Below, one piece after another: positions 55,159 through 64,000 of a DNA stretch of 64,000 bases (position 1 is the stretch's first letter; the number at the start of each line of letters is the position of its first letter). The notes beneath the pieces are model-generated. The model made no database searches. It was not told the DNA's origin and saw nothing but the letters and a program-made list of their open reading frames with translations. The stretch is taken from contig CP070695.1 in assembly GCA_020353515.1 (NCBI GenBank), positions 2,030,064 to 2,094,063 on the forward strand. The letters are read 5' to 3'. Source of the DNA: Candidatus Heimdallarchaeota archaeon. GTDB taxonomy: Archaea > Asgardarchaeota > Heimdallarchaeia > Hodarchaeales > Hodarchaeaceae. The translations under genes and the position numbers were made by a program.

Positions 55159-56241
55159 ATGGCTTTAAGCAGGCGTGCATCGGTTGCAGAACATTGGGCT
55201 CTTTTTGTAGAAGGTACTGAAGTCAAGTGGCATTTTGGAAACCCATCAAATGAATTCCTCGAGGTTGTTTCCAATTTTTTGATGGGCTTGGGAAAATTAG
55301 GTAAGGAGCTTTTCGGCACAGAAGGTATTGCCAGTATCATCTTTGATCTTAGGGGGCATGCTGGATTAAAAGCGTCCGAAATTTTCATCGTTTCATTAGA
55401 AGAGAAGTTCTTCTTGATAATTTCGGATCCTTCAGTTACGTTATTATTAATTTCAGCGGAAGGAGGCATTCCAGAAGATATTCAAATTATTATGAAAGCT
55501 GTTTTAGTAGGTCAAGCCAGTATTCTTTACTCAAATATGGTAGCAGATGTAGACGATGAAAAACAATCCGAAATAGAAGAGCATTTCAGGAGCATCATTG
55601 CTGATATTAATGAAGAATATTTAGTAGATGAAAGTATTAATAATATTGTAGGGGTTGCAGGATCCAATTTTTCAATCCTATCATTTCAAGAATTACTTTT
55701 GCTCCATTACTACCTCCGACAAGCCGCTGAAAGAACAACAGAAATATTACCAACTCATGAGGGTTTTTCTATAATCGCTAATCTTGATGGCTTTGATATT
55801 CCATTTGCATATAATATCACAAATCAAGGGATATGGGCGGGATTCTTTGCAGCAATAGTTGGTTTTATTCATTCATTATTTGAATCTAAACCCCGCTACA
55901 TCTCTTTTGGAACCACAGAAATTTATAAATTACGCTTCGTATTCGGAAAAGATTATTTTATGGCAATCGACTCTGGATTGACTTCAGATCTGTTATTAAA
56001 GAAAGATTTTCATAAAAGGCTTTTCGCTACTCCATATGCTATCTTGGTAGACATGAGTCCTGGTATTAAACGACTGTTAATTGAAGAACTTCTCCAATAT
56101 CATGAGTCTCGGTTAAATTCTCTTAGTGCAGCCACCCTCTTAGATACATTTGTTGGAGATGATGATACTCTTGCAGATCTTAGTCAAGATGAGCGTATTA
56201 TACGAATTTGGGGAAAGTTACTCTTAAGTTTCCAGAAGTAA
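55159..56241 (+). CDS. Soluble protein with two longin-like domains
   Basis: Two beta-hairpin/helix units: WALFVEG...VVSNFLMGLGKLGKELFG and IIANLDG...IWAGFFAAIVGFIHSLFE. Confidence 0.55.
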   Translation: MALSRRASVAEHWALFVEGTEVKWHFGNPSNEFLEVVSNFLMGLGKLGKELFGTEGIASIIFDLRGHAGLKASEIFIVSLEEKFFLIISDPSVTLLLISAEGGIPEDIQIIMKAVLVGQASILYSNMVADVDDEKQSEIEEHFRSIIADINEEYLVDESINNIVGVAGSNFSILSFQELLLLHYYLRQAAERTTEILPTHEGFSIIANLDGFDIPFAYNITNQGIWAGFFAAIVGFIHSLFESKPRYISFGTTEIYKLRFVFGKDYFMAIDSGLTSDLLLKKDFHKRLFATPYAILVDMSPGIKRLLIEELLQYHESRLNSLSAATLLDTFVGDDDTLADLSQDERIIRIWGKLLLSFQK

Positions 56242-56319
56242 TATATTAATCAATTAGAAACACCTTTTTTACTAGATTTTTTGTAATAGGATAAATGATT
56301 TCAAAGGTAATTTGTTATT

Positions 56320-57114
56320 TTGGTGTTAAGATTGACTCATGTCAAGCAATTATTTGATTTATCAGGAAAAAAAGCATTGGTGACTGGTGGGGCATCTGGA
56401 ATAGGATATACTATGGCCGAGGGATTAGCTGAAGCAGGAGCTGCTGTTGCTATTTGTGGTCGAGGAAGGCATGGTTCATTAGAAGAAGCTTCTTCGAGCC
56501 TTGAAAAAATTGGGTCTGAAATAATAGCGATTAAATGTGATGTGAGTGTTGAAGACGATATTCTAGAACTTGTGAAAACTTTGGATGATCAGAATTTTCC
56601 CATCGATACCCTTGTTAACAATGCAGGAGTCAGCTGGGGACATGACTCGGAAACAATGCCATTAGATCGCTGGAATATGGTTATTGAAACGAACTTAACT
56701 GGTTTATTTGTTGTTACACGAGAGGTAGCTAAAAAATTCATGATTCCTAAAGGGAGTGGATCAATTATCAATATTGCTAGTGTTTCTGGACTAACAGGTG
56801 GTGAGATTGGAATCGCAGCGTATTCAGCCTCAAAAGCTGGTGTTATTGGTATAACAAAACAACTAGCAATTGAATGGGCCTCTCTTGGAATTCGAGTCAA
56901 TGCAATTGCCCCTAGTTGGTTTCCTTCATATATGACTCGTCATTTCACGGGAGAGGACAGTCCTTATCGCGAAGTTTTACTAGCAGATTGTCCCTTTGGA
57001 CGTTTCGGAGAATCCTGGGAGCTAAAAGGACCCATAGTTTTTTTATCTAGTAGAGCAAGTTCGTACATTACTGGTACTGTAATCCCTGTTGATGGAGGAT
57101 ACTTGGCAAAATGA
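56320..57114 (+). CDS. SDR family oxidoreductase
   Basis: TGGASGIG, NNAG, YSASK and VDGG motifs. Confidence 0.95.
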   Translation: MVLRLTHVKQLFDLSGKKALVTGGASGIGYTMAEGLAEAGAAVAICGRGRHGSLEEASSSLEKIGSEIIAIKCDVSVEDDILELVKTLDDQNFPIDTLVNNAGVSWGHDSETMPLDRWNMVIETNLTGLFVVTREVAKKFMIPKGSGSIINIASVSGLTGGEIGIAAYSASKAGVIGITKQLAIEWASLGIRVNAIAPSWFPSYMTRHFTGEDSPYREVLLADCPFGRFGESWELKGPIVFLSSRASSYITGTVIPVDGGYLAK

Positions 57115-57914
57115 ATTCTAAAAATGTTTTAGATTTATTCAAATTAACAGGAAGAGTGGCACTTGTGACTGGGGGCGCCAAAGGGGTGGGAACAGTAATA
57201 AATGAAGGTCTTCTGGAAGCTGGGGTTACTACATTGATATTTTGTGGTCGAGGAAGACATGGTTCATTAGATGATGAACGAAATCGCTTATCTGAATCAT
57301 TTCCATCAACAAATATTCATGCTTACCAGTGTGATATATCAGATGAATCACAGGTTAAATCCATGATACAGAACATAAAAAAGGAGGTGGGAGGAGTTGA
57401 TATTTTGATTAATAATGCTGGAGTCACTTGGAATGCTCCAACAGTAGATCAGACATTAGCAACTTGGCATCGAGTTTTAGATATCAATCTTACAGGATTA
57501 TTTCTCATTACTCGAGAAGTTGCAAATGAACTCATGATTCCAAAGAGTGGAGGAACGATTATCAATATCAGTAGTATCTTAGCTTTTCAAGGAATAGCGG
57601 TTGGCAGCCAGATTGGATATACTGCTTCCAAGGCTGGTGTTTTGGGGTTAACACGACATCTGGCGATCGAATGGAGTAAATGGAATATTCGTGTGAATGC
57701 AATCGCACCCTCATTTATCGAAGGAGATACAATGGCTAAAGTATTCACTAGTGAGGATAGTCCTATGAGAGAGACCCTCCTTGAATCGGTTCCATTGAAA
57801 CACTTTAATCATCCAAATGATATAAAATCCGCTACATGTTTCTTAGCTTCTGATGCTTCATCAAATATAACAGGTCAATATCTCGTTTTAGATGGTGGTT
57901 TATCAGTAAAATAG
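57111..57914 (+). CDS. SDR family oxidoreductase (tandem paralog)
   Basis: TGGAKGVG, NNAG, YTASK and LDGG motifs; shares CGRGRHGSL with the previous SDR; ATGA overlap. Confidence 0.95.
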   Translation: MNSKNVLDLFKLTGRVALVTGGAKGVGTVINEGLLEAGVTTLIFCGRGRHGSLDDERNRLSESFPSTNIHAYQCDISDESQVKSMIQNIKKEVGGVDILINNAGVTWNAPTVDQTLATWHRVLDINLTGLFLITREVANELMIPKSGGTIINISSILAFQGIAVGSQIGYTASKAGVLGLTRHLAIEWSKWNIRVNAIAPSFIEGDTMAKVFTSEDSPMRETLLESVPLKHFNHPNDIKSATCFLASDASSNITGQYLVLDGGLSVK

Positions 57915-57928
57915 ATAGGTGATCTAGA

Positions 57929-59113
57929 ATAACGGAAATAAATAAAATTAAGGGCCTTGATCAAACAGTTAAAGCTGGTAAAGTAGCGCAAAATGAAAAG
58001 AACCTCCTTCTTGATCATTCTCCAGATTATTTTCTTGAGAATTATACTGAATCATTAAAGGTCATCCAACAACAGGGAAAACCCCTATTAGGGTACTTTA
58101 CCAACCGTATTCCAGTTGAAATACTGCATGCATTGAATACTTACCCAATTCGTATGTTATCAATAGGGTCATCTACTCAAGGGGCTTCTGAACGATATAT
58201 TCAATCCTTTGGATGCTCTTGGTTACGTCATATTATGGATATTGGGATTGCTAAAGGTTATCAGGCCTTAGATGGAGTCATCTTTTCTGCAGGCACTTGT
58301 GATTCTCTTCAAAATGTTTCCGACATCTGGAGAAAGGTCTTTTCTGAACAATGGGCATATAATCTAACCTTTCCAGTATTGACAGATACTAAAGCTGCAG
58401 TAGAATATCTGCAAAATGAATTTGAGACTTTGGTGCAAAAAATATCAGAAAAATTCCCTGACAATCCTCATGGTTTTACAATTACTGATAGTATAAAATT
58501 ATATAACAGGAAAAGGATTAATCTTCAGAAGCTACTGAGTCTTGTTTCAGAACGAAGATTTAGATACAGTGATTTCTTTAAATTGGCACTCCTTGGGGAT
58601 ATCCTTCCAATTGAGACAATTAATCCATATTTAAGTATAAAAATCGAGCAGGTTGAATCATCTTCTCAACTCACCATACCTGATTCCCCCCGTCTTCTTT
58701 TATCTGGAGGGATGTTTGATAGCTTCCGCTTATTTGAGGAAATTCCTGAGTTTGACCAAATTGTAACTGATGATTTGTCTTTCGGGGCGAGAAATTTTAA
58801 GTTCTCTATACCCCAAAGTGGATTCTTACAAGGTTATGCTCAAGCCTATCTGGAACGAATTCCCGATCCTACTGCGTTTGATATGGAAAAACGTTGGAAA
58901 GGCCTTGAAGAAGCCATTCGTCATCATAACATTGAGGGTGTGATCCTATTAGGAATGAAATTTTGTGATCCCGATTCTTTCGAATTTGTCTCTATCCAGA
59001 ATAATCTTAAGGATCTCGACATTCCTTATCTTACTTTAGAAACATCCCCTGATTTATCAAACATTCAACAGATACAAACACGACTTTCTGCATATATCGA
59101 GATGTTATCCTGA
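57929..59113 (+). CDS. 2-hydroxyacyl-CoA dehydratase / benzoyl-CoA reductase subunit (HgdB/BcrC-like), probable ATA start
   Basis: GCSW, TCDS, KFCDP and TRLSAY.E motifs; conserved GYF...IPVEILHA lies upstream of the track start at 58133; frame is open to ATA 57929, after AGGTGAT. Confidence 0.85.
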   Translation: MTEINKIKGLDQTVKAGKVAQNEKNLLLDHSPDYFLENYTESLKVIQQQGKPLLGYFTNRIPVEILHALNTYPIRMLSIGSSTQGASERYIQSFGCSWLRHIMDIGIAKGYQALDGVIFSAGTCDSLQNVSDIWRKVFSEQWAYNLTFPVLTDTKAAVEYLQNEFETLVQKISEKFPDNPHGFTITDSIKLYNRKRINLQKLLSLVSERRFRYSDFFKLALLGDILPIETINPYLSIKIEQVESSSQLTIPDSPRLLLSGGMFDSFRLFEEIPEFDQIVTDDLSFGARNFKFSIPQSGFLQGYAQAYLERIPDPTAFDMEKRWKGLEEAIRHHNIEGVILLGMKFCDPDSFEFVSIQNNLKDLDIPYLTLETSPDLSNIQQIQTRLSAYIEMLS

Positions 59114-59128
59114 GAGGTGAAGATCATA

Positions 59129-60388
59129 ATGTCTAGCAAAGACTCTGAACGGGTATATCGGCGACTTGAGAGTACTCAAAGTATTAAGAATTCCCAGGCC
59201 ATGTATTATTTTCAGAGTAAAAATCCCTACATATATGATGAAGGGAAAAAGATTGCTTGGGTAACATCAGGCGCACCTGTAGAATTTCTAATTGCCATGG
59301 ATATCATTCCTCTCTATCCTGAACAATATGGAGCCATAGCAGGCGCAGCCAAAGACTCTACCAGATTATGTCAAGTGGCAGAGAACCATGGATATAATAC
59401 AGATCTTTGTGCTTACGCGCGAACTTCGTTTGGTAGTATATTTGCTCCTGATCCTCCCACTCCCATGCATGAAATTGATGGTACTGGAGGATTAGCACGG
59501 CCAGACATGTTGATTGCAGGCAACAATATCTGTGGGACTGTTTTGAAATGGTATCAGGATTTATCACGCTTCTTCAAGATTCCATTATTCTTATTCGATA
59601 CCCCCCCTTTGACTGGGAATCGTCTACCAAAATATTATTTGGATTATGTAACAGTCCAATTGCAAAAGTATGTTGAGTTTCTAGAAATCCAAATGGAGAG
59701 GAAAGTAGACGAGGATGAGATGATTGAAACTATGCAAAATTCTCTTCAGGCTATAGATTTATGGACCCAAATTCTAGAACTTTGCAAAAATAAGCCAAGT
59801 CCATTGAACTGTGCAGATCGATTCTTATTAATGGCTCCCGTAGTAGCACAGCGGGGAACTACTGAAACTGTCTCAGTATATGAGGAGGTTTTATCAGAAG
59901 TTAAACAGCGAGTTGACGCGGGTCTTGGAGCAATCACAGTCCCCGAAAAATATCGGTTATTGTTTGATAATATACCAATATGGTTTAATCTCTATGAATT
60001 CTTTAATTCATTTGCTGCAAAAGGAGTAGTTTTCCCAGTTGATACTTACACACAAGCTTGGTCCCAACAGGGAAGAATAATTGAATCTGGGGATTTAATA
60101 CGGGATGCTGCTATAATGTACTCAAATATTTACCTGAATAAGACTCTACAGCATAAAATAGACCTGATTAGCAACCTTGCCACTGACTACGAATGTGATG
60201 GGATCCTATACCATTCTATGAGAAGTTGCAAGCGATATAGTTTAGGACAACCGATTACTCGACGAGAAGTGACTGAAAAGACTGGTAAACCAGGTATCAT
60301 TGTAGAGGGAGATATGTGTGATAATAGAAATTTTAGCGAAGAACAAGCTTGGACAAGAATTGAAGCCCTATTAGAATTAATCGGTTGA
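59129..60388 (+). CDS. 2-hydroxyacyl-CoA dehydratase / benzoyl-CoA reductase subunit (HgdA/BcrB-like)
   Basis: PVEFL..YPE, DLCAY, NICGT, RSCK, EGDM.D and TRIEA motifs; ATG 59129 follows GAGGTGA. Confidence 0.9.
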   Translation: MSSKDSERVYRRLESTQSIKNSQAMYYFQSKNPYIYDEGKKIAWVTSGAPVEFLIAMDIIPLYPEQYGAIAGAAKDSTRLCQVAENHGYNTDLCAYARTSFGSIFAPDPPTPMHEIDGTGGLARPDMLIAGNNICGTVLKWYQDLSRFFKIPLFLFDTPPLTGNRLPKYYLDYVTVQLQKYVEFLEIQMERKVDEDEMIETMQNSLQAIDLWTQILELCKNKPSPLNCADRFLLMAPVVAQRGTTETVSVYEEVLSEVKQRVDAGLGAITVPEKYRLLFDNIPIWFNLYEFFNSFAAKGVVFPVDTYTQAWSQQGRIIESGDLIRDAAIMYSNIYLNKTLQHKIDLISNLATDYECDGILYHSMRSCKRYSLGQPITRREVTEKTGKPGIIVEGDMCDNRNFSEEQAWTRIEALLELIG

Positions 60389-60410: not shown

Positions 60411-60977
60411 TCAAGTTTTATACTTGTTATATAAGGTCAATCCTAATTTATGGAATGCCGCGTTTACATTTACACCAGTTTTAGCTGAAGTTTCAAAATA
60501 GTTGATATCATCATTAATATTATCTAAACTTGTGATTAACTCTCCCGAAATATATTTTCTCGCTTCTTCACTGTTGATTTTATCCTTAGTTTCGTTTTGT
60601 AAATCGGATTTATTACCAAGCACAATAACCAAAATATCTGATGATCCTGAATGCTTACTGAGTTCATTCAGCCACTTATCTAGGCTAAATAAGGTATCGG
60701 GTCGAGTAATATCGTAAACTAAGAGAGCTCCAACAGTGTGTTTATAGTAGAGTGTTCTAACAGAACGGAAGGTTGGTTGACCTGCAAGATCCCAGATCTG
60801 AAATCTAATCTTCTTGGATCTAGCACCATGGTTTAATATGACTTGTTTTGAGACAAAATCAGTCCCAATTGTTGGTACATAATCTGTGTCGAATCCTCGT
60901 CCTAAATATCTATTTCTTAATGATGTTTTTCCTACTCCTCCATCTCCACATAAGGATATTTTAACCAGTAATGCCAC
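60411..60977 (-). CDS. Rab-like small GTPase
   Basis: GDGGVGKT, PTIGTDF, WDLAGQ, NKSD and ETSAK motifs. Confidence 0.93.
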   Translation of the reverse strand: MALLVKISLCGDGGVGKTSLRNRYLGRGFDTDYVPTIGTDFVSKQVILNHGARSKKIRFQIWDLAGQPTFRSVRTLYYKHTVGALLVYDITRPDTLFSLDKWLNELSKHSGSSDILVIVLGNKSDLQNETKDKINSEEARKYISGELITSLDNINDDINYFETSAKTGVNVNAAFHKLGLTLYNKYKT

Positions 60978-60998
60978 TATTTTGTCAAACTCCTTTCA

Positions 60999-61565
60999 TT
61001 AAGAATAATATTTGCTGTAACTTCTTAATCCTAATTCCGTGAAAGCTTTATCAACATTTACACCTGTTTTTGCGGAAGTTTCAAGAAATTGAATCTTGTT
61101 GTCAATATTCTTAAATTTGTTTGTTAATTTATCGTTTATGAATTCTTGCGCTTCTTTTTCATTAATGTTATGAGTACCGACGTCTCGTAAATCTAATTTA
61201 TTGCCAAGAACGATGATTACCATACCTGTTGAACCAGAATGTTGATTGAGTTCATCTAACCAGCGTTGTAAATTGTATAAGGTCTGTGGACTAGTGATAT
61301 CAAATATGAGGAGGGAACCTACTGCATGTTTGAAATAAAGCGTCCTTACTTCACTGAAAGTTGGTTGGCTCGCAAGATCCCAGATCTGGAATCGAATCTC
61401 TTTAGATTCAGAACCCACTTTTATTGCAGTTTTTTTTGTTACAAAATCTGAACCAAGGGTTGGTAAGTATTCACTCTGGAAACCCCTTCCTAAATACCTA
61501 CTTCGTAAGGAAGTTTTCCCCACCTTCCCGTCTCCACATAAACAGATTTTTGTTATTAATGCCAC
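60999..61565 (-). CDS. Rab-like small GTPase, tandem paralog with atypical G3 (DLASQ)
   Basis: GDGKVGKT, PTLGSDF, WDLASQ, NKLD and ETSAK motifs. Confidence 0.92.
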   Translation of the reverse strand: MALITKICLCGDGKVGKTSLRSRYLGRGFQSEYLPTLGSDFVTKKTAIKVGSESKEIRFQIWDLASQPTFSEVRTLYFKHAVGSLLIFDITSPQTLYNLQRWLDELNQHSGSTGMVIIVLGNKLDLRDVGTHNINEKEAQEFINDKLTNKFKNIDNKIQFLETSAKTGVNVDKAFTELGLRSYSKYYS

Positions 61566-61662
61566 TACTTAACAAACACCCAATATATTTTACCTATATT
61601 TTAAGCACAACAAATAATTACATCTCTTGGTATAAAATTATATTTCTTTAATGATATTGTAA

Positions 61663-61962
61663 TCTAGGTTAGAAAATGCCTGTAAACATAACCCTGGAGA
61701 TATGCCAGTTGTATTATTAATAAAGTGGCAGATAAAAGGATTACACATAACGGTACAAGATTATGGAGAAGGCCTACCTGCTGAAATAATTGCTAAAGTC
61801 TATAGCCCTTTTACCTCTAGAGTTACAAGTTATAGCGCAGGAGGTCTTGGTTTAGGATTGACGATAACTAAAAGTATTATTGATCAACATGGCGGGGAGA
61901 TTATTATCGAAGCAGCAAAGAATGAGGGTACAAAAGTCAGGATATTTATTCCACCAGTTTAA
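61663..61962 (+). pseudogene. Isolated HATPase_c (histidine kinase ATP-binding) remnant
   Basis: N box LENACKH (from 61669) lies upstream of the ATG; G1 DYGEG, F box and G2 GLGLGL present; in-frame TAA at 61660 and no HisKA domain. Confidence 0.7.
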
Positions 61963-61970
61963 TATCATTT

Positions 61971-64000
61971 TTAGAGATTAAATTGAGGGATGATAATTTT
62001 CACATCAGGAGAACAACCAATCCAAAGAGCTTCGTAAATTTGCTCTGGAGGAATTTTAAGAAGTTTAGCTAAGATACTCCAGGCATCATTATATAAAAGC
62101 ATTCTTGATTCTGATAATAATCCTTTGTCTGCAGCTTCGTTAAATAGCTTTTCAGGATGGTGTGCTGCACGTTCGGGGAACCTGTGAGCAACAACTAGAC
62201 ATTTAAGCGAATTAAGTCCAGCTCGAGAGATAGGAATATCAATCCGTCCTCTCTTTAATCCTTCATCAAACATTTTCAATTTAAAAGTATCTATAACGAA
62301 TGGTTTCAGTAAAGGGAGAGGAAAATATTTATTGAGAATTGATTCAACCTGGGGGCCATAAAATCTCTTATCAACAATTCCAAGATCTTGGATCGAGATA
62401 TTTTTTTCGAGATCCTGAATCGCACGAGAAAATATCTTTTTTGTGAATCTAGATGGTTTTTCTCTAAGAAACACAAATATTCTGAATGTTGGTGTTGCTG
62501 CAATTAAAACTTGGACTTGGTGTTGTTCAATTACACTCATACGAATTATTCCATTCTCTGTTTCCGAAACCTCTTCATCTTGTTGTACTTGCTCCATAAA
62601 ATCTGCTTGAAATGACTGGAGAAACGTATCAATACTTACTGACAGGCCACTCAATGTATCATTTAATGTTTCACCTTTCTGGTACAAGACATTGGTTATA
62701 TTATAAATAGGAACGCCAACTTCTGTGCTTACTAGAATTGTATATACATTAGAAATTATCAATAATCTATCTTCAAACTCTCTCAATCTTTTGAATTTTA
62801 CACTTCTTTTTCTTTGAATGGAACGTACAGGTAGAAGTATACCGATAAGAATAATTATTGTGACAAGTACAATTAAGAATATTTGTGGTAGATTAAGCTC
62901 TGGCTGAAGTAGTTTAACAAGACGTTCTTCATGATCATGTGTATCAATCGAAGAATTTTTCATTCTTGAATTACCTAATCCATCCGTTGCATTTACATAA
63001 CATGAGAAGTGAACATCTGGATCGAAATCATATGCAATAGTGACCCAGTACCACCAAATCACACCTGAGTTGTTAAGGTAAATCATTGGGATTTGGAAAT
63101 TCTCACTAATTTCAGAACCTGCTCCCATCCTAGAAATTGTAGAAGAATTAGTGATTGAATAATGGAGAATAGCTCCTACTATTCCAGAATATTCCTCAAG
63201 TTTTGCATAAATTATCAAATTTTCTGGATTTTGTTCATTATCCTTCTCCAAAAGTATCTCAAGTACTCTTGGAGGAGCTTTGTCTTCTGCTGTAAAATTG
63301 AACTTGAAGTAATTGAAAATTCGAAAAGTTTTTCCTCCAGTGTTAAATTGCGAAAAGGTATAAATTCTTACAGATATACTTTCGTTCATCCAATCTAATA
63401 AATCTATTGTTAAATTCCAATGATTTGAATTGAGGTGAGTACCATTCAATAGAATAAAACTACTATTTGGGAAAGTAATCTCAAACTTAACCATAATGGA
63501 ATCATGGAAGCTAATATCTGTAATTTCTGCAGTGAGATTATAACGGACATCCATTGATATATCTGGTTGAAATTTATAACTTTCAATTAATGGACGACTT
63601 ATAATGCTAATCATGCTCAAATTCTTTGGTAAACCAGTTACTATCCCATCAAAAGGTATGAATCTCGCATACCATACTTCTCCAACTCTAGTATTATATT
63701 TCTGTATAAAGGTTTGATTTTCAAAGTCTCTCATTTCGACCCAAGAACCATTTAGCAGTTGTTTAAACCATTGGATTAGAGTATGGTCAGGATCCATATC
63801 ATTATCAGAGAAAGTATAAGTGATGTTTATATGCTCATCAACAACGTAGAATTCGTTCATTCTAGTATTTGGTGTTACATTGGCCAAACTTTCATCGAAA
63901 TAATAAATCAGATTCAATATCAGAGGTGGTGAATTAATTATCTTCAATGTAGATGAGTTAACAAAACGCGACCATTGAGTTCCGTCAGTATTGCGTATAA
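61971..64000 (-). CDS. Large single-pass surface protein (Ig-like domains, TM, cytoplasmic longin-like and helical domains); 5' end beyond the window
   Basis: Frame open to the window edge; N-x-S/T-rich beta domains (NSPP, DKAPP, YVNATD..GN); TM IFLIVLVTIIILIGILLPV followed by a basic stop-transfer; YTILVSTEVGVPIY...LSGLSVSIDTFL longin-like pattern. Confidence 0.8.
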   Translation of the reverse strand, partial: IRNTDGTQWSRFVNSSTLKIINSPPLILNLIYYFDESLANVTPNTRMNEFYVVDEHINITYTFSDNDMDPDHTLIQWFKQLLNGSWVEMRDFENQTFIQKYNTRVGEVWYARFIPFDGIVTGLPKNLSMISIISRPLIESYKFQPDISMDVRYNLTAEITDISFHDSIMVKFEITFPNSSFILLNGTHLNSNHWNLTIDLLDWMNESISVRIYTFSQFNTGGKTFRIFNYFKFNFTAEDKAPPRVLEILLEKDNEQNPENLIIYAKLEEYSGIVGAILHYSITNSSTISRMGAGSEISENFQIPMIYLNNSGVIWWYWVTIAYDFDPDVHFSCYVNATDGLGNSRMKNSSIDTHDHEERLVKLLQPELNLPQIFLIVLVTIIILIGILLPVRSIQRKRSVKFKRLREFEDRLLIISNVYTILVSTEVGVPIYNITNVLYQKGETLNDTLSGLSVSIDTFLQSFQADFMEQVQQDEEVSETENGIIRMSVIEQHQVQVLIAATPTFRIFVFLREKPSRFTKKIFSRAIQDLEKNISIQDLGIVDKRFYGPQVESILNKYFPLPLLKPFVIDTFKLKMFDEGLKRGRIDIPISRAGLNSLKCLVVAHRFPERAAHHPEKLFNEAADKGLLSESRMLLYNDAWSILAKLLKIPPEQIYEALWIGCSPDVKIIIPQFNL

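Follow-up and report, generated by a model that had tools for sequence, protein, structure and literature searches.

Can a protein of the archaeal cell surface carry, on its cytoplasmic side, a platform for the small GTPases encoded next to it? The question is raised by one end of a 64,000-nucleotide stretch of the genome of Candidatus Heimdallarchaeota archaeon (contig CP070695.1, positions 2,030,064 to 2,094,063; hereafter the window), where a large receptor-like gene lies upstream of two tandem genes for Rab-like GTPases. Asgard archaea are the closest prokaryotic relatives of eukaryotes and possess dozens of small GTPases, Rab-, Arf- and Rag-like, together with many longin and roadblock proteins. 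Dimers of longin and roadblock domains are classic docking platforms for small GTPases, as in TRAPP, Mon1-Ccz1, Ragulator, MglB and SRX (PMC10933270). As a rule, MK-D1 does not encode its GTPases in one operon with longin or roadblock proteins (Tran et al., PMC10933270), and since the genes are mostly unlinked the pairing of regulators with GTPases is hard to predict. In the present case one clade of Rab-like GTPases is linked to one family of cytoplasmic tails in a clade- and paralog-specific manner. The locus offers a rare and testable candidate for a regulator-GTPase pair, formed by one longin-tail family and one Rab-like clade and conserved across genomes.

The receptor gene is on the minus strand, in an open reading frame (ORF) that extends from 61971 to beyond 64000, and the 284 residues that follow its transmembrane helix make up the tail. 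An AlphaFold2 (AF2) model of this tail, built with an alignment of 53 of 60 phmmer clusters, reached a predicted local distance difference test (pLDDT) score of 90.6 and a predicted template modelling (pTM) score of 0.88, and consists of a juxtamembrane helix, a longin domain and a compact helical domain, in this order. The basic juxtamembrane helix corresponds to tail residues 1-25 (62751..62825, minus strand; helix at residues 2-26 of the model, pLDDT 92-96). Over tail residues 27-167 the modelled elements (strands 27-34 and 39-44, helix 52-80, strands 95-101, 104-110 and 114-120, helices 126-142 and 153-167) follow the order β-β-α-β-β-β-α-α that is expected of a longin domain. Foldseek with the tail model returned longin and roadblock proteins only, with modest E-values. 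VIA-align was run against 48,161 representative chains; its first run gave synbindin (Z 10.1), VAMP7 (9.6), Sec22 (9.2), sedlin (9.2) and a Lokiarchaeota longin (8.8), and its second run Sec22b (10.5), Ykt6 (9.9) and sedlin (9.7). The best 50 rows of both searches were all longin or roadblock proteins with the longins ahead, roadblock proteins scoring lower at Z about 7-8. Longin superpositions (Z 9-10.5) aligned 116-133 residues with a root mean square deviation of 3.0-3.6 Å and cover model residues 26-173. Several of the top structural matches are platforms of Rab or Arf-family GTPases, namely TRAPP subunits, Mon1-Ccz1, SRX and CPLANE.

At the sequence level, searches of Pfam and NCBIfam with the tail gave no family above noise, and a tail profile searched against PDB sequences found nothing relevant; neither a curated profile nor a solved longin was matched by sequence. 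On the strength of the model and the structural alignments, we assign a longin fold to tail residues 26-174 with high confidence (62304..62750, minus strand). The initial annotation had proposed a longin-like domain at 62330-62750 from the letters of the DNA, and its suggested check by AlphaFold and Foldseek bears this out, with all top matches being longin or roadblock proteins. The 110 residues that follow (61974..62303, minus strand) form a helical domain with a pLDDT of 93.2 when modelled alone. Foldseek found no match for this domain, and the best VIA-align score was Z 5.3, mostly to winged-helix-type domains; with scores of at most 5.3 and an empty Foldseek search, the label "winged-helix-like" is a lead only.

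The two tandem Rab-like GTPases lie downstream of the receptor gene on the same strand, as initially annotated, and have Pfam Ras matches; the spacer of about 400 bp described there measures 405 bp from the receptor stop to the start of GTPase 1. Because this genome holds 58 Ras-family matches, a chance adjacency had to be excluded. Tail-bearing loci were fetched from the class (83 genomes; L numbers denote loci and G numbers genomes in the following), and the adjacent GTPases were placed in a tree with 43 Ras-like GTPases of this genome retrieved by phmmer. A Rab-like GTPase is encoded 3' of the tail gene, on the same strand, in L040, L042, L043, L045, L046, L047, L048, L049, L050, L051, L056, L011, L013 and L020, and upstream of it in L007 and L054; the receptor-GTPase pairing is seen in 15 genomes. 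Spacing between tail gene and GTPase gene is as small as 13 and 18 bp in two genomes (L046 and L049), and the genes overlap by 10 bp in one. All 21 adjacent GTPases from the 15 genomes, together with one lone copy, form a single clade with support of 98-99 in the Shimodaira-Hasegawa-like approximate likelihood ratio test (SH-aLRT). With 200 ultrafast bootstrap trees, exactly two changes of the adjacency label are required throughout the 5-95% range. A GTPase of this clade lies within about 1.1 kb on the same strand for 17 of the 28 tail genes, and 21 of the 23 clade GTPases adjoin a tail gene.

The pairing extends to paralogs. The closest in-genome relatives of GTPase 2 are the lone copy (C1:2491674), its tandem twin in the window, and two tandem genes immediately upstream of a receptor paralog of 2180 aa that bears the same tail. 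GTPases beside receptors of 2180-2450 aa make up a subclade of their own, and the tail tree has the same major groups. These larger paralogs are found in another genomic context, beside an ABC/FtsX transporter, and their GTPase is upstream in L007 and L054 and downstream in L050. As the context of the paralogs differs and the GTPase has shifted its position between genomes, the adjacency has outlived rearrangement. Absence follows a similar pattern: four of the five genus genomes that lack a tail match (G049, 93% complete; G050, 87%; G068; G057) also lack clade GTPases, their best matches being orthologs of other GTPases only, and the fifth, the incomplete G059 (74%), has no tail match yet encodes one clade GTPase. 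The synteny analysis that had been suggested together with the initial annotation finds the neighbourhood conserved, with one GTPase clade accompanying the tail family also at paralogous loci in other contexts.

Several observations weigh against reading this linkage as a functional partnership. In a partial Mantel (mirror-tree) analysis of 12 orthologous loci, distances of tail and GTPase correlated with r 0.76, versus 0.885 and 0.90 with the neighbouring gene for 2-hydroxyglutaryl-CoA dehydratase (HGD), and the partial r was -0.19; since the correlation is no better than with the HGD gene, tail and GTPase show no co-evolution beyond their shared phylogeny. The genes for the HGD D component (HGD-D) and for short-chain dehydrogenases/reductases (SDR) beside the locus are also conserved across the genus, and with the whole neighbourhood retained in this way, part of the synteny is plain descent. 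Nine of the 28 tail genes have no adjacent GTPase, among them a 69%-identical paralog in this genome (L006) and the locus of the single sister-family genome covered (L053), and two clade GTPases (C1:2491674 and L077 of G059) are not beside a tail gene. Finally, receptor and GTPases are possibly not co-transcribed here, because the 405-bp spacer between them contains an antisense relic of a kinase gene.

These points could be accommodated if the genes were neighbours by descent and co-regulation only, and the tail bound other longin or roadblock proteins, or parts of the cytoskeleton or of ESCRT. Such linkage without interaction would fit the lack of excess co-evolution and the third of tail genes that have no GTPase neighbour, and a distant longin-tailed receptor 24 kb away is indeed paired with a soluble partner and gelsolin, not with a GTPase. 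We nevertheless consider this explanation unlikely, because the genes have stayed adjacent through rearrangement at paralogous loci, because only one of many GTPase clades is involved, and because the absence of the tail and that of the clade GTPase are correlated across genomes.

Individual loci differ in arrangement. In L049 (G054:C69:111000-130999) two tandem tail-bearing receptors of 1907 and 1619 aa are followed by two GTPases. One falls in the clade's main group; the second falls in the subclade that elsewhere accompanies receptors of 2180-2450 aa, a receptor type that was not found in this genome (86% complete). In L048 (G048:C208, 12180-15446) the receptor gene runs 10 bp into the start of the first GTPase gene, another GTPase comes next, and a convergent gene for a full-length 615-aa histidine kinase follows right after it. 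The lone clade GTPase of the present genome (L092; C1:2491674-2492231, minus strand) is a recent copy of GTPase 2 and the only non-adjacent clade member in this genome; it is surrounded by PAS/DUF835, hybrid histidine kinase and methyl-accepting chemotaxis protein (MCP)-domain genes and may serve the unlinked receptor paralog at C1:1499658-1504496. A GTPase 2.2 kb from the L006 paralog was not counted as linked, being on the opposite strand, across an assembly gap and from a distant clade. Three 423-aa ORFs near three paralogous loci were likewise dismissed as a shared partner, since they are unrelated to each other (HGD-D, aminotransferase and GNAT).

The window contains the C-terminal 675 codons and the stop of the receptor gene (61971..64000, minus strand; stop codon 61971-61973). 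The scaffolded genome copy contains 113 gaps of 100 N each; the one at C1:2094064-2094163 lies directly beyond the window end and interrupts the gene, so that the 5' end and the N-terminus of the protein are missing. A 715-aa ORF for the receptor was rejected as an artefact of translation through this gap. Complete syntenic orthologs are 1610-1650 aa long, and the N-termini of complete orthologs have a basic stretch and a hydrophobic signal-type segment. The receptor gene is likewise interrupted by assembly breaks in at least three related genomes (L040, L011, L013), which suggests repetitive or paralogous ectodomain sequence.

The visible ectodomain (62898..63998, minus strand) comprises 367 residues and, in agreement with the initial description of a sequon-rich protein, holds 16 N-X-S/T sequons versus 4.9 ± 1.95 expected, a number reached in none of 5000 composition shuffles. 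No enrichment is seen in the cytoplasmic tail (3 versus 1.2 expected), and full-length relatives of the receptor carry 44-64 sequons outside and 0-3 inside. A single transmembrane helix, predicted at 62826-62883 in the initial annotation, is located at 62826..62897 (minus strand; residues 368-391 of the visible part) by the sole 19-residue windows with a mean hydropathy above 1.6. Since a cluster of arginine and lysine residues comes right after this helix, the C-terminal 284 residues are cytoplasmic. The receptor is a type-I, heavily N-glycosylated giant surface protein. The protein had been described as having an immunoglobulin (Ig)-like, transmembrane and longin architecture; the latter two elements hold, but the Ig-like part does not go beyond leads, with sub-threshold Pfam matches to prealbumin- and Ig-like domains in the orthologs and Atlas neighbours that are consistently Ig-, PKD- or cadherin-like but reach only 0.80-0.84 by features and TM 0.42-0.53 by structure. 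The ectodomain is probably made of tandem β-sandwich modules of Ig/PKD-like type.

Both GTPases of the window are 188 aa long and encoded on the minus strand. GTPase 2 (60411..60977; Pfam Ras 3.9e-41) has canonical G motifs (G1 GDGGVGKT, G3 DLAGQ, G4 NKSD) and no C-terminal cysteine; the two closest genomes have one GTPase at this locus, to which it is orthologous, and it groups with L040 and L011. GTPase 1 (60999..61565; Pfam Ras 4.6e-39; G1 GDGKVGKT) belongs to the tail-associated clade as a divergent extra copy, a single GTPase being present at the locus in the two closest genomes. Its G3 motif reads DLASQ (61365-61379) instead of DLAGQ, which is unique among the 24 locus GTPases, and it could be a switch-impaired paralog or reflect a single-base error in a metagenome-assembled genome (MAG). 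The nearest solved relatives of the window GTPases are all Rabs, namely Rab11, Rab10, Rab7 and Rab2 (1e-29 to 7e-32) and a Thorarchaeota Rab, and the motifs TIGTDF and LVYDIT resemble the RabF motifs of the Rab family. A C-terminal cysteine is absent from 23 of the 24 locus GTPases (with one exception), and there is no N-terminal extension. As they lack a C-terminal cysteine for prenylation, the locus GTPases are Rab-like and not canonical Rabs; lacking both this residue and an N-terminal extension, the GTPases of the clade have no membrane anchor of their own and need a membrane partner.

The simplest reading of a membrane-anchored longin tail inherited together with an anchor-less GTPase clade is that the tail recruits the GTPases at the membrane. 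We lean towards the view that the longin tail serves as a predicted membrane docking and regulatory platform for the adjacent Rab-like GTPases. The tail would recruit these soluble proteins to the membrane and would probably also regulate them; it would probably work as a dimer, in the manner of other longin and roadblock platforms, and the place and time at which a GTPase binds or switches would then depend on where the surface protein is, on whether it is clustered and on its ligand state. Several elements of this scheme are inferred: that tail and GTPase bind each other, that the tail dimerises, which way regulation goes (GEF-like, as a guanine nucleotide exchange factor, GAP-like, as a GTPase-activating protein, or as a plain anchor) and any effector downstream. 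That extracellular binding would pass straight to the GTPases by way of the tail, as the initial annotation proposed, is a hypothesis, and that such a receptor-GTPase module operates without a kinase, as it also held, is an assumption. In a more specific version, which seems rather unlikely in its full extent, contact- or ligand-driven pairing of two surface glycoproteins would assemble their longin tails into a dimeric platform that switches the Rab-like GTPase, free of any kinase. If true, this would be a prokaryotic, kinase-free receptor-to-small-GTPase pathway at the plasma membrane, present in close relatives of eukaryotes and built on the logic later used for cargo- or receptor-coupled regulation of Rab and Arf. 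A longin platform on a cell-surface protein also suggests how GTPase switching may have been tied to the surface before endomembranes existed.

The conserved positions of the tail bring up the possibility that it acts as a GAP. Its best-conserved residues fall on longin helix α1 and on the edge formed by β1-β2 and β4-β5. A family-wide G-x-P motif (G37-V38-P39; 62709..62717, minus strand) is located in the β1-β2 loop and at the start of β2 (G in 30/30 and P in 30/31 ungapped alignment rows), and a conserved basic residue, R115 (62481..62483, minus strand), occupies the β4-β5 junction (R in 30/33 rows, K in 3/33). With the longin sheet order 2-1-5-4-3, the two sites are expected to be spatial neighbours in the modelled fold. 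The GP motif of longin GAPs is placed at the end of the β1-β2 loop and the start of β2 (PMC12290439), the same position as G-x-P here. The tail could thus be a longin GAP of the FLCN/NPRL2/SMCR8 kind, with R115 as arginine finger and G37-x-P39 shaping the catalytic pocket. This reading draws on the shared motif position, on the conserved arginine at the adjacent β4-β5 junction, whose proximity is deduced from topology, and on the layout of a longin followed by a small C-terminal domain, which recalls NPRL2 (bioRxiv 10.1101/2020.10.19.343400). The tail is likewise reminiscent of the FLCN-FNIP, GATOR1 NPRL2-NPRL3 and C9orf72-SMCR8 complexes and the GP-motif Asgard longins (PMC12290439) in having a Gly/Pro motif before β2, a nearby Arg and this longin plus small C-terminal domain layout.

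Yet the motif has one residue more than GP, the basic residue is a lysine in three of 33 members, and the GTPases retain their catalytic glutamine. The longin GAP complexes are moreover soluble heterodimers with Rag and Arf clients, and the tail matches none of their profiles: Pfam gave no Folliculin or NPR2 match for it, and a search of the genome found one weak unrelated match to PF11704 and none to PF06218. FLCN, NPRL2 and SMCR8 are not among the best 50 fold matches, unlike the longins of SNAREs, TRAPP and adaptor protein (AP) complexes, and Lst4 is found at Z 7.9-8.3. On balance a GAP role of this kind appears improbable to us.

The direction of control could also be inverted. The GTPases would then govern the insertion, sorting, polar placement, clustering or turnover of the receptor, and the tail would be a cargo or effector handle for the GTP-bound GTPase. 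There are parallels in MglA, which positions surface adhesion complexes, and in SR-β, which pairs with the SRX longin. The same evidence of linkage applies to this inside-out scheme, SRX-SR-β structures are among the fold matches (Z 7.2-8.0), and huge proteins with 44-64 sequons plausibly need dedicated handling. Nothing, however, tells it apart from outside-in signalling, and secretion or glycosylation genes are not conserved at the locus; we regard it as doubtful. The receptor of the signal recognition particle (SRP), composed of SR-α with its SRX domain and SR-β, resembles the present system in that a longin pairs with a small GTPase at the membrane. The anchoring is reversed, since the GTPase SR-β is the anchored partner there, whereas here the longin is anchored and the GTPase soluble, and no SRP-type NG domain is present. 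MglA-MglB, a bacterial Ras-like GTPase with its roadblock GAP, and Asgard roadblock proteins (Z 6.7-8.1) share with the present system, as proposed here, a prokaryotic small GTPase served by a dimeric platform of the same superfold, but MglB is a soluble roadblock protein, whereas the tail has longin topology with C-terminal helices.

With the docking platform proposed here as the preferred reading, close counterparts are the TRAPP core (Bet5/Trs23 = TRAPPC1/C4, and sedlin), Mon1-Ccz1 and Fuzzy-Inturned (CPLANE), which have the longin fold and a Rab-type GTPase as client; the fold matches are synbindin at Z 10.1, sedlin at 9.7, TRAPPIII-Ypt1 at 9.2 and Mon1-Ccz1 at 8.0-8.1. These are soluble multi-subunit complexes recruited to membranes, whereas in the present case a type-I surface glycoprotein carries the longin as its tail; there is no sequence similarity to them and no TRAPPC3-like partner at the locus. 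Longin SNAREs provide the top structural matches (Sec22b Z 10.5, Ykt6 9.9, VAMP7 9.6) and likewise have longin and membrane anchor on a single polypeptide. In these tail-anchored proteins the longin is N-terminal, a SNARE helix is present and an ectodomain is lacking; the receptor has the order ectodomain, transmembrane helix and longin, and no SNARE motif.

Our literature searches found no description of a surface receptor with a longin tail coupled to a dedicated Rab-like clade. Fusions of longin to two-component domains and a roadblock-Rab-DENN operon have been reported by Liu et al. The parts are known, but their arrangement, with a longin platform borne by a type-I surface glycoprotein that goes with a dedicated Rab-like clade, is new. 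The locus adds a link to a specific GTPase that is seen at the level of a clade, across multiple genomes and resolved by paralog.

The spacer between receptor and GTPases contains, in antisense, an 86-aa relic of a histidine kinase (61702..61962, plus strand) that matches Pfam HATPase_c with an E-value of 1.3e-16 over profile positions 36-108 of 111, i.e. the C-terminal part. It ends 9 nt from the receptor stop, and its best paralog in the genome is 42% identical, none being close. The relic was probably left by a rearrangement that also introduced the extra GTPase. It was rejected as a conserved partner, since its sole relative in the other fetched loci is the full-length kinase beside the GTPases of G048. 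The spacer also has A/T-rich, TATA-like stretches, and the 21-bp gap between the GTPase genes holds GGAG; the GTPases of the window may have their own promoter.

On the other side of the GTPases, and convergent to them, a genus-wide conserved group of plus-strand genes (55159-60388) encodes a 360-aa protein, two SDR proteins and two 2-hydroxyglutaryl-CoA-dehydratase D-component proteins. The 360-aa protein (55159-56241) showed no similarity to the tail profile with hhalign, and Pfam gave a weak LANC_like match only.

The tail family is narrowly distributed. Among 1.8 billion representative proteins, phmmer found relatives in 60 clusters only, and in every cluster the module makes up the C-terminal ~280 residues, the proteins being up to 2550 aa long. 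The tail is present in 16 of the 21 other genomes of the genus and in one of two sister-family genomes, and nowhere else in the class. When 400 genomes of the phylum were searched with a hidden Markov model (HMM), the only additions were weak longin-only matches and one partial match, and by sequence the family is limited to one order. The weak longin-only matches fall close to the C-terminal ends of further very large proteins (627-2768 aa) from this genus and from a distant family in the same phylum, as exemplified by G052:C120:10053-10556, G271:C7:116678-117145 and G156:C24:8267-8602. Judging from these similarities, there are hints that membrane-proximal longin tails may be more widespread than the present tail family.

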